Shown piece by piece: positions 61,437-64,000 of a DNA stretch of 64,000 bases. A program made the translations under genes and the position numbers. The notes beneath the pieces were generated by a model, which made no database searches, was not told the DNA's origin, and saw nothing but the letters and a program-made list of their open reading frames with translations. Every line of letters starts with the position of its first letter. The first letter of the stretch is position 1. Source of the DNA: Escherichia coli (GTDB lineage: Bacteria; Pseudomonadota; Gammaproteobacteria; Enterobacterales; Enterobacteriaceae); the NCBI RefSeq assembly GCF_003334255.1, contig NZ_QOWU01000018.1, one strand, 5' to 3'.

Positions 61437-62227
61437 TTAACGTCCCCTGTGTTACCTTTCGTTTTATCACGAGCAATAAGCTGGCTGGCAATAACCATCA
61501 CCAGCGACAGCACCAGTAATATGGTTGCCAGCGCGTTAACTTCCGGCGATACGCCGACTTTGACCATCGAATAAATTTTTAACGGCAGAATTTCATAGCT
61601 TGGTCCGGTGACGAACGAAGAAACTACTACATCGTCCATCGACAGGGTAAAGCTTAACACCCAGCCCGCCGCCACCGCTGGCATTGCCAGTGGCAGAATG
61701 ATTTTTCGCAGAATGGTAAATTCGCTGGCACCGAGATCTTTCGCCGCTTCCAGCATTCGCACGTCAAAACCTTTCAGGCGCGAATACACTGTCACCACCA
61801 CAAATGGCAGGCAGAAGGTGATATGCGAGAACAGCAGCGACCAGAAGCCAAGCTGAATACCCAGCAGCATAAACAGCACCAGCAGCGAAATCGCCATCAC
61901 GATATCTGGTGACATCATCACCACAAACAGCATTCCACTAACGAACGGCTTACCACGAAAGCGATAACGGTACAGCGCAACTGCCGTCAGTGAACCGATA
62001 AGCGTAGCAAATGTCGCCGAAAACACCGCCATTGTTAGTGAATGCTGCGCTGCCTGTAACAGGCTGTCGTTGTTCATCAGCAGGCTATACCATTTGGTGG
62101 TAAAACCCTGCCAGTTGATGCCAAAGCGCGAGCTGTTAAAGGAGTTCACAATCAAAATAATGATTGGGATATACAGGTACGCGTAGATAGCGGTCATAAA
62201 ACCGCCGCGAAGCAGTCGACCGATCAT
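61433..62227 (-). CDS. potC: spermidine/putrescine ABC transporter permease
   Basis: 264-aa ORF matching PotC. Confidence 0.96.
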   Translation of the reverse strand: MIGRLLRGGFMTAIYAYLYIPIIILIVNSFNSSRFGINWQGFTTKWYSLLMNNDSLLQAAQHSLTMAVFSATFATLIGSLTAVALYRYRFRGKPFVSGMLFVVMMSPDIVMAISLLVLFMLLGIQLGFWSLLFSHITFCLPFVVVTVYSRLKGFDVRMLEAAKDLGASEFTILRKIILPLAMPAVAAGWVLSFTLSMDDVVVSSFVTGPSYEILPLKIYSMVKVGVSPEVNALATILLVLSLVMVIASQLIARDKTKGNTGDVK

Positions 62228-62250
62228 TCGAGTTCCACCTTTTTATTCAT
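62224..62250 (-). other. putative prophage attachment-site core retaining the last codons of potB
   Basis: Minus-strand frame ends …SRLMNKKVELE-TGA with the stop overlapping the potC ATG; this resembles the PotB C-terminus as I recall it, while the sequence upstream is not PotB-like. Core boundaries are estimated. Confidence 0.4.
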
Positions 62251-62393
62251 AAGGCGGGACACTTTCAGGATTTTGAATTTATTCAATTTTTCCCTTTCTC
62301 CAAAATCTCTCCAAAACGTTTCCCCAAAACTAGGCCACGCATTTTACAACACTTTTTTCCTGAGATGGTGACGGATATTCCATATGGTGTTTG

Positions 62394-63512
62394 TCAAATA
62401 ACCAACTTAACCCATTCCTGACCTCGAGTATCGTTATAGCGATCGGTGGTTGCCTGGACTTTATGTCCTAGTAATGTTTTTGTATCGATACCCTGTGCAC
62501 GGTACAGCCGTTCTGATAGAGAGCGTTGTTCATGAAATGTTGGCGGAGTTTTTCCTGCTGGTGGAATTATCCCAGCCAGATCCCGTGCTTTGGCAAAGTA
62601 GTCGCTCAGGTTGTCTTTACTCATCGGCTTCGGTTGTTTCTGGTGCCGACTATGGATTAGATATGGACTTAATATTCTGTCTCGGCACCCATCAATAACT
62701 TCTTTTAACGTTATCCCAATGGCATCACAGCGTAGTGTAAGCGGTAACGCCAGACGCATTCCGGTTTTTCCCTGGGTGATATGCAAGTGTTCGTTCCACA
62801 CATCTGAAAAACGCATGTGGCAAATGTCATCACGGCGCTGACCAGTAACAATCGCAAGAAGCATTGCGTTACGGATAAAGTGTTTTTCAGGCGTTGCATT
62901 GTAAATTTTTTGCCAGTCTTCCATGGTGAGCCTGGCTCTGGTTACTTTAGGGATCGGTTTACGGGTAGCCTCCGGAGGATTCCATCCAGGAGGAACTTCC
63001 CCTGCATGCTGTGCTTCTTTATAAATATCAACCCATAATCCACGATTTACTCTCGCTGTGCTGACCATGTCTTTATCCAGCCACTCATCCAGTATTAATG
63101 CAAAGTCTCTTACTTCCAGTTCTTTCAATGGGTGGTTTCCCAGACGGGAAACCAGGTATGCAGCCATTCGAGTTTTTTCTTTGTGAGTTGTAGCTGCAAT
63201 ATCTCCATTTTTCAGTCGCGTGTCCTGTATTTTCAGATATCGATCAACCCATGCCTTTAATCTGATACCCCGACGTTTTGTTGCTGACGGACTTTCATCA
63301 ATTTTGCGCATGAAATATTCAGCTTCTGCTGCAGCTATTCGCTGATTGGCTGTGGAAGCGATTTTTTCTGCCTTACCTTTGTCTGTTCCGAGTCCGTGAA
63401 ATTTTCCAGTCACAGGATTTTTATACTGGTAGTAAACTCTGCCAGTTCTGCGATCAAACTTTTCGTAAAGACCGGCTACGTCAGTGCTGTTTTTTCGTGG
63501 CCTCGGTGACAT
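62394..63512 (-). CDS. int: phage integrase, tyrosine recombinase (lambda Int family)
   Basis: 372-aa ORF; C-terminus TFHEQRSLSERLYRAQ…LLGHK…TDRYNDTRGQEWVKLVI parallels lambda Int (HxxR, H, Y catalytic residues); N-terminal arm-binding-like domain. Confidence 0.9.
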   Translation of the reverse strand: MSPRPRKNSTDVAGLYEKFDRRTGRVYYQYKNPVTGKFHGLGTDKGKAEKIASTANQRIAAAEAEYFMRKIDESPSATKRRGIRLKAWVDRYLKIQDTRLKNGDIAATTHKEKTRMAAYLVSRLGNHPLKELEVRDFALILDEWLDKDMVSTARVNRGLWVDIYKEAQHAGEVPPGWNPPEATRKPIPKVTRARLTMEDWQKIYNATPEKHFIRNAMLLAIVTGQRRDDICHMRFSDVWNEHLHITQGKTGMRLALPLTLRCDAIGITLKEVIDGCRDRILSPYLIHSRHQKQPKPMSKDNLSDYFAKARDLAGIIPPAGKTPPTFHEQRSLSERLYRAQGIDTKTLLGHKVQATTDRYNDTRGQEWVKLVI

Positions 63513-63750
63513 GAGTTAAAATCTCCTTCAGTGCATCATCATCGCCAGTATGAATTTCCGGCGCAATTCCCGTTTCACCAGGCCCAACAAATACTGCTCG
63601 GCGATCTATCAGCCAACGCCCACGAATTTTTTGTGGCCTTGGAACGATGTATCCTAGTTTTCCGTATTTCACCAGGGTAGTGTTTGTTATTGGGAGACTG
63701 AACCGTTTTGGTTTCCACTCGTCGAGCGTTATCAGGTACTGTTCGCTCAT
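63481..63750 (-). CDS. xis: excisionase (Xis-like)
   Basis: MSEQYLITLDEWKPKRF… resembles the lambda Xis N-terminus (MYLTLQEWNARQRRPR); overlaps the int start by 32 bp as in lambda. Start may instead be 63759 (MIAMSEQ…). Confidence 0.75.
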   Translation of the reverse strand: MSEQYLITLDEWKPKRFSLPITNTTLVKYGKLGYIVPRPQKIRGRWLIDRRAVFVGPGETGIAPEIHTGDDDALKEILTHVTEATKKQH

Positions 63751-63811
63751 GGCTATCACTCCGGAACGCGCCAGTTGCAGAATATCAACGACAACTGGCG
63801 ACGGTTGAACA

Positions 63812-64000
63812 TTAAAAATCAGCCTGACTCGGGATCAGTTTTTGCCAGATAACTGAAACGTATTTTGCCTGGTAACGGGCGTCATCAAGTGCATTATGGC
63901 GCTCACCTTCGAATGGAATAGCCGTTCTGGCATCGAAGTCTATGGCTTTCCCCAGCTCAACGATTGTGCGTACATCGCGATCGTTGTAGTAACGCCACGG
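63812..64000 (-). CDS. phage DnaQ-like (DEDDh) 3'-5' exonuclease, C-terminal 62 codons only
   Basis: Minus-strand frame ends …AIPFEGERHNALDDARYQAKYVSVIWQKLIPSQADF-stop; H-x-A-L-x-D-A motif matches exonuclease motif III of the DnaQ superfamily. Confidence 0.6.
   Translation of the reverse strand, partial: PWRYYNDRDVRTIVELGKAIDFDARTAIPFEGERHNALDDARYQAKYVSVIWQKLIPSQADF

Follow-up and report, generated by a model that had tools for sequence, protein, structure and literature searches.

A widespread Escherichia coli prophage gene next to xis that probably joins a RecE-like body to a DEDDh 3′–5′ exonuclease domain

Introduction

What kind of nuclease does a lambdoid prophage encode beside its excisionase gene, and on which nucleic acid does it act? 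The question is raised by the end of a 64,000-nt stretch of Escherichia coli DNA (contig NZ_QOWU01000018.1; hereafter the window), where the minus strand of positions 63812–64000 carries the last 62 codons and the stop codon of a prophage gene that runs out of the sequence. An initial annotation, made from the letters of the window, took this gene for a DnaQ-like 3′–5′ exonuclease lying next to xis rather than a lambda-type Exo. Comparison with full-length homologues leads us to a fuller answer: the fragment belongs to an early-left lambdoid gene that probably encodes a RecE-like body followed by a DEDDh 3′–5′ exonuclease domain, with DNA ends or 3′ tails as the most likely substrate.

Results

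The window carries the last third of a DEDDh exonuclease domain

Translation of the minus strand over 63812–64000 gives the uninterrupted sequence PWRYYNDRDVRTIVELGKAIDFDARTAIPFEGERHNALDDARYQAKYVSVIWQKLIPSQADF*, the stop codon being at 63812–63814. The DEDDh-type exonuclease motif III that had been recognized at the end of the gene is indeed there: this Exo III motif, ERHNALDDARYQAKYV, occupies positions 63857–63904 of the window, with the codon of its histidine at 63896–63898 and that of its second aspartate at 63881–63883. In addition, the Pfam family PF16473 matches the 62-residue fragment alone with an E-value of 1.3e-18 (model positions 126–177 of 177), far beyond chance; the fragment is the final third of a DEDDh (Rv2179c/DexA-like) domain. 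The open reading frame (ORF) leaves the window at 64000, and about 2.25 kb of the gene lies past this point.

The full-length gene exists as two alleles

DNA that is 100% identical to positions 62300–64000 is present in many complete E. coli genomes. In enterotoxigenic E. coli (ETEC) H10407, O114:H49 90-9280 and strain 127, the gene spans 2472 nt and encodes 823 aa (WP_000048605.1 and relatives; complete gene at L001:13513–15984), and this 823-aa allele is the one carried by three exact matches over 62300–64000. Over the last 25 kb of the window, the nearest genomes are those of strains G1/2, G6/7 and G8. In strain G1/2, which is the best whole-window relative and differs from the last 2.4 kb of the window by one mismatch, at 63770, the gene is 2442 nt long and encodes 813 aa (WP_115202336.1; complete gene at L004:42863–45304). 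The last ~370 residues of the two alleles are almost identical, with few substitutions, whereas their N-terminal halves differ. The first ~250 residues are even unrelated, consisting of a RecE-type PF06630 region in the 813-aa allele and of a YdfE-type module in the 823-aa allele; the gene is thus a mosaic, with a recombination point inside it.

The C-terminal domain is complete and related to T4 DexA

The C-terminal ~185 residues hold all the DEDDh residues, namely D646, E648, D746, H796 and D801 (823-aa numbering). Motifs I and II, which the DEDDh reading demands of the full-length protein, are both found in the full-length homologues: Exo I (MIDLET, with D646 and E648) is invariant in homologue alignments and Exo II (NGANFD, with D746) is kept in at least 90% of the aligned homologues, both motifs being located outside the window. 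Exo III (HNALDDA, with H796 and D801) lies inside the window, at 63881–63898, and has the H-x4-D spacing of the ‘h’ subtype. Profile searching places the full-length homologues in the DEDDh family PF16473, which matches end-to-end in both alleles (E=5e-67, model positions 2–177 of 177), over residues 642–813 of the 823-aa allele and 632–803 of the 813-aa allele.

Structure prediction points the same way. An AlphaFold model of the domain (predicted local distance difference test 87, predicted template modelling score 0.85) retrieved T4 DexA first when submitted to Foldseek (8KEL/8KEN, E~1e-11, template modelling score 0.74), followed by RNase T, Orn/REXO2 and ERI; the Foldseek probability was 1.00 for DexA, RNase T, Orn, REXO2 and ERI, all of which are DEDDh enzymes. 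The domain is accordingly modelled as having an RNase H-like alpha/beta fold. DexA (8KEL) was also the sole match, with an E-value of 1.6e-6, in a sequence search of the PDB.

DexA and the prophage domain belong to the same Pfam-level family, have the same fold and are both phage-encoded, and all five DEDDh residues align, those of Exo I and Exo III with D7, E9, H186 and D191 of DexA. By contrast with the prophage protein, DexA is a stand-alone enzyme of 227 aa, with extra loops, and is only 24–26% identical to the prophage domain. The DEDDh residues are invariant or nearly so down to this level of identity, across T4 DexA, proteins resembling the E. coli DexA homologue EcD (see below) and stand-alone enterobacterial homologues. 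Purifying selection acts on the domain, for which omega is 0.24 in comparison with the diverged allele of an Stx2a phage; against the stand-alone gene of phage mEp460, the proportion of nonsynonymous differences (pN) is 0.27 while that of synonymous differences (pS) is saturated.

The remainder of the protein is homologous to the non-catalytic body of RecE

As regards the protein as a whole, the term DnaQ-like exonuclease holds for the DEDDh domain but not for the small enzyme that it evokes, since the full-length protein has 813–823 aa, of which ~600–620 form a RecE-like body. This body was not foreseeable from a 62-codon fragment. It makes up the first ~600–620 residues and is homologous to the non-catalytic body of the RecE protein of the Rac prophage (exonuclease VIII, K-12 b1350). 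In BLASTP comparisons, the 813-aa allele and RecE share 59% identity over RecE residues 50–592, with long near-identical blocks, while the homology of the 823-aa allele covers RecE residues 278–591 only. The near-identical blocks shared with Rac RecE include DKLLAASRGEFVxGISDPNDPKWVKG and a further motif together with its acidic linker. PF06630 (Exonuc_VIII) matches residues 57–189 of the 813-aa allele (E=5e-35). The NCBIfam model of RecE, NF007259, scores 942 bits with the 813-aa allele and 285 bits with the 823-aa allele, below its curated cut-off of 1269, and covers model positions 1–600 and 271–602 of 877, respectively.

The RecE homology of both alleles stops just short of the RecE nuclease domain, and neither BLASTP nor NF007259 aligned either allele with the C-terminal 5′–3′ nuclease region of RecE (RecE ~600–866). 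A 2023 review assigns residues 564–866 to the nuclease domain of RecE and no known function to its N-terminal domain (PMC11611040). Because the RecE homology ends where the 5′–3′ nuclease domain of RecE starts, we regard the protein, on sequence grounds, as a RecE relative whose 5′–3′ PD-(D/E)XK module has been exchanged for a 3′–5′ DEDDh module. The contrast initially drawn with lambda Exo is therefore right in that the nuclease is a different one, and neither lambda Exo nor a PD-(D/E)XK domain is annotated in the G1/2 prophage; yet the protein is better called a RecE relative with a swapped nuclease.

In the structural model, the body consists of three confidently folded modules, after which comes an acidic linker, long and disordered, with a conserved CxxC...CxxC motif.

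The combination of this body with a DEDDh domain is not confined to one lineage of sequences. Searching 1.84 billion sequences, we collected 272 cluster representatives of the RecE-body family, a small one, at E<=0.001. By phmmer, we surveyed the C-terminal content of those 79 of the listed representatives that are 450 aa or longer, using as queries the DEDDh domain and RecE 595–866. Fifteen of the 79 have the DEDDh domain and 21 match the RecE C-terminal query, some of these matches being internal and possibly reflecting the acidic linker instead of the nuclease domain; the other 43, which include some fragments, have neither. Since 15 diverged clusters (at the 50% identity level) keep the DEDDh fusion, the fusion has been maintained for long enough to diversify beyond 50% identity.

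A literature search combining RecE with DEDD terms yielded no paper describing the fusion, and one on ydfE and Qin yielded nothing functional. In K-12, the Qin pseudogene ydfE (L033:6079–6999) corresponds to the first 256 codons of the 823-aa allele, with 96% identity; it is cut by IS2 (IS2E), so that just the non-catalytic N-terminus is left in K-12.

The gene sits where Rac has recE, in a Qin-like early-left region

The exonuclease gene does lie beside xis, as initially reported. The excisionase gene xis (WP_000003742.1), directly 3′ of it and on the same strand, occupies positions 63481–63750 on the minus strand according to the ORF list and the RefSeq annotation of identical DNA; int, identified in the same way, occupies positions 62394–63512, also on the minus strand, overlaps xis and encodes a tyrosine integrase with an Arm DNA-binding domain (WP_000074983.1). 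In lambda, exo does not lie beside xis, and the counterpart by position is recE of Rac. In the G1/2 prophage, which is ~45 kb long, has lambda-like head and tail genes and lies between potB and potC (L004:1594–46889), the early-left order from int is int, xis, the exonuclease gene, a ydfD-like gene, dicB, ydfC, ydfB, ydfA and the gene of a LexA-family repressor, a Qin-like arrangement. The exonuclease gene and recE thus share the same neighbourhood, an early-left operon upstream of xis and int.

In Rac, recE is paired with recT, whereas the gene of the potB prophage sits at the position of recE without a recT partner. A search for a recombination module among the neighbours of the gene came out negative: xis lies on one side, ydfD and dicB on the other, and there is no annealase. 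More generally, no RecT, Bet, Erf, Gam or lambda Exo and no RecE-type PD-(D/E)XK nuclease domain is annotated in the complete ~45 kb G1/2 prophage, where only RusA is found, in the early-right region. Since the prophage is without an annealase, the exonuclease is not one half of an exonuclease/annealase recombinase of the Red alpha-beta or RecET type.

The same prophage (L004:1700–46800) contains 12 Chi sites (GCTGGTGG) in 45 kb, 3 on one strand and 9 on the other, all located within L004:28770–46552, a segment comprising lysis, regulatory and early genes; we judge this density to be roughly host-like. Having Chi sites and neither annealase nor Gam, the G1/2 prophage is similar to lambdoid phages that are rich in Chi and have no Rec module, as described in a survey of recombination modules (Zheng et al., Genome Res 2025, PMC12315714). 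This survey also reports nuclease genes of the DnaQ type close to int in lambdoid phages, at the same position as the prophage exonuclease gene; its main text contains no description of the RecE-body fusion.

A DNA end is the most probable substrate

Judging from family membership, which is the basis for both polarity and chemistry, D646, E648, D746 and D801 would hold two divalent metal ions and H796 would act as the general base, so that the 3′-terminal phosphodiester would be hydrolysed and nucleoside 5′-monophosphates released in the 3′-to-5′ direction. The substrate would most likely be DNA ends or single-stranded 3′ tails. Three lines of evidence favour DNA. T4 DexA and E. coli EcD, the nearest relatives to have been characterised, both degrade DNA; the body to which the domain is joined is that of an enzyme acting on DNA ends; and the gene belongs to an early-left operon, beside xis and int. 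On induction of the prophage, the exonuclease gene would be transcribed together with xis and int. A promoter and terminator scan of 62200–64000 detected nothing exceeding shuffled expectation, and no promoter-like site between the exonuclease gene and xis. Candidate roles are the processing of ends during lytic replication, nucleotide scavenging as in T4, the blocking of competing recombination and phage exclusion.

Several points weigh against this reading, which we nevertheless consider probable. The window holds 62 codons, and the full-length features, the allele and its intactness were read from other genomes. The Pfam founder of the family, Rv2179c, has been named an exoribonuclease, which makes an RNA substrate conceivable. 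No relative of the RecE-like body was found among the PDB structures, and hence no functional clue. Finally, 3′–5′ exonucleases generally inhibit recombination and do not promote it, according to the survey cited above (PMC12315714), so that likeness to RecE does not by itself imply a role in recombination.

What the RecE-like body contributes can be put more boldly, as a tentative proposal that we think has a small chance of being right. The body may be a reusable targeting or scaffolding module, to which lambdoid phages would attach nucleases of one polarity or the other, the DEDDh form of the protein being a dedicated DNA-end processor for phages that lack an annealase, bear Chi sites and rely on the RecBCD of the host, or else a destroyer of the 3′ ends of a competitor. 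The enzyme would then trim 3′ tails, so that the ends become substrates for RecBCD; alternatively, it would destroy the competitor's recombinogenic 3′ ends. That two alternative nuclease modules are found on one body suggests that it is the body, and not the nuclease, that defines the common task. The pairing of the RecE body in nature with nucleases of opposite polarity is a hypothesis that comes from outside the window; if the body does act as a targeting module, this would provide a first handle on the long-unexplained N-terminal region of RecE.

A rather unlikely alternative is that the protein serves defence, in the manner of HREX: the exonuclease of a lysogen would degrade the incoming DNA of phages containing 5-hydroxymethylcytosine (5hmC) and thereby bring about superinfection exclusion. 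Kang et al. (NAR 2025, PMC12153337) solved the structure of T4 DexA and described both DexA and EcD, an E. coli homologue of DexA, as DNA exonucleases. EcD cleaves 5hmC-containing T4 DNA and not unmodified DNA, and its expression from a plasmid protects E. coli against T4, a system that was named HREX (PMC12153337). EcD and DexA share their Pfam family with the prophage domain, and defence genes are frequent in prophages. EcD corresponds to GenBank HAK9828821.1; its exact sequence is absent from the text and supplements of that paper, which give primers only. We therefore compared the prophage domain with a near-identical reconstructed relative, not certainly EcD itself, taken from the EcD-like 189-aa genes retrieved by a 17-mer scan of IMG/VR, which have the A78 landmark and are one base off the reverse primer. 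This EcD-like protein is 37% identical to the prophage exonuclease over the whole domain (E=3e-36), and the catalytic residues are kept.

The residues put forward as decisive for HREX, by contrast, are not conserved. The position of DexA W152, proposed to recognize 5hmC, is W132 in the EcD-like protein and Y766 in the prophage exonuclease; that of D169, with the same proposed role, is E145 and K779, respectively, in a gapped and therefore less certain part of the alignment; and that of D90, said to drive tetramer formation in DexA, is A78 in the EcD-like protein, whereas the aspartate is retained in the prophage exonuclease (D718). By the criteria of PMC12153337, these positions suggest that the prophage exonuclease is not of the HREX type. 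Furthermore, EcD is a stand-alone protein of 189 aa and not a RecE-bodied fusion, and the prophage gene lies between dicB/ydfD and xis in an early-left operon that would as a rule be repressed in a lysogen. PADLOC returned a weak match to a generic DEDDh (CRISPR-associated) model for the 823-aa allele (E=1.7e-5) and none for the 813-aa allele.

To about the same degree, we doubt that the DEDDh domain trims the 3′ ends of RNA, be they host or phage transcripts or small RNAs, as Rv2179c does. Rv2179c, the PF16473 founder from Mycobacterium tuberculosis, has been described as an exoribonuclease and is a bacterial enzyme, small and stand-alone. It shares with the prophage domain a full-length match to the family hidden Markov model and the DEDDh chemistry, the prophage exonuclease differing in its phage-borne, fused form and in its probable action on DNA. 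The family bears the name ‘3′-5′ exoribonuclease Rv2179c-like’, RefSeq often calls the proteins ‘3′-5′ exoribonuclease (domain-containing protein)’, the structural neighbours include RNase T, oligoribonuclease and the ERI nucleases, and the K-12 counterpart of the neighbouring Qin-type region encodes DicF. However, RNase T degrades DNA as well, which means that the two substrates cannot be told apart by fold; the domain is attached to the body of an enzyme that processes DNA ends, and its gene sits where recE does in Rac; and the closest structure and characterised relatives, DexA and EcD, are DNases (PMC12153337). We therefore retain DNA ends or 3′ tails as the preferred substrate.

Prevalence, variants and database labels

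The exonuclease gene is among the most frequent E. coli prophage genes. With presence defined as at least 80% coverage, the 561-nt domain DNA was found in 4048 of 5426 complete E. coli genomes (~75%), in up to 7 copies per genome; enterohaemorrhagic E. coli strains have several copies of the gene, and one protein cluster occurs on at least 1000 contigs. The domain DNA is also present in sequenced phage records, among them those of HannyBb, mEp460, mEp235 and Stx2a-converting phages. Stand-alone DEDDh proteins of 180–190 aa, 57–90% identical to the domain, are encoded by E. coli, Salmonella, Klebsiella and phages such as mEp460. In mEp460, the domain is encoded by a stand-alone gene of 190 aa (L035:3991–4563), located in the early-left region and separated from int by a few genes; the nuclease module is thus in circulation as a free protein as well as in the fusion.

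Other variants are shorter. In clusters P0039 and P0054 (214 and 261 aa), a YdfE-type N-terminus is joined to a part of the DEDDh domain that is without Exo I; these proteins seem to have arisen from the 823-aa allele by internal deletion and probably have no activity.

Truncated forms of this kind raise the question of whether the gene is a decaying, functionless remnant, a chance chimera of defective prophages. Besides the deletions in P0039 and P0054, the first 256 aa that remain of ydfE in K-12 after its interruption by IS2 and a D-to-N substitution in Exo II of the stand-alone variant P0023 could be taken as signs of decay. We regard this possibility as very improbable: the 813- and 823-aa ORFs are intact in the annotated genomes that we inspected, the gene occurs in sequenced phage genomes, and its frequency among complete genomes and contigs, an omega well below 1, the retention of the catalytic residues at 24–26% identity and the persistence of the fusion in 15 diverged clusters all speak against it.

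The gene is already catalogued, its domain is already annotated and its class has been noted in recent literature; to that extent the finding is ordinary. What the comparison does correct is a frequent mislabel. RefSeq names the proteins ‘exonuclease’, ‘3'-5' exonuclease’ or ‘3'-5' exoribonuclease domain-containing protein’. Many public records, by contrast, read ‘exodeoxyribonuclease VIII’, one of them adding ‘5' - 3' specific dsDNA exonuclease’, while the catalytic domain is of the 3′–5′ DEDDh class. From its sequence, the ‘5′–3′ specific’ label is wrong for this domain; the names in these records are an annotation transfer based on the RecE-like body. That the protein could truly be exonuclease VIII (RecE), the 5′–3′ dsDNA exonuclease of a RecET-type module, is next to impossible, despite the name given in these records and the genuine RecE homology of the N-terminal ~600 aa, since the alignment to RecE ends at residue 592 without the nuclease domain, NF007259 reaches only 942 and 285 bits of the 1269 of its cut-off and no further than position 600–602 of 877, the C-terminal domain is of the DEDDh type, with the opposite polarity, and recT is neither adjacent nor elsewhere in the prophage. 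This candidate is refuted by domain content.

The prophage junction at potB

The left junction of the prophage (attL region) was located by base-by-base comparison with K-12 at positions 62228–62393 (strand unspecified). Identity to K-12 (L034, potC–potB junction) still covers ~22 nt at the 3′ end of potB, up to ~62249, after which the window diverges into phage DNA. Past int, the window continues with potC and potD and then with ordinary E. coli chromosome (flg through rne, fab, ptsG, mfd and lol). With the prophage inserted at this end of potB, the potABCD operon is interrupted: potC and potD, which are on the strand of int and follow immediately downstream of it, are cut off from potA, potB and their promoter, while the opposite end of the prophage supplies a slightly altered PotB C-terminus.
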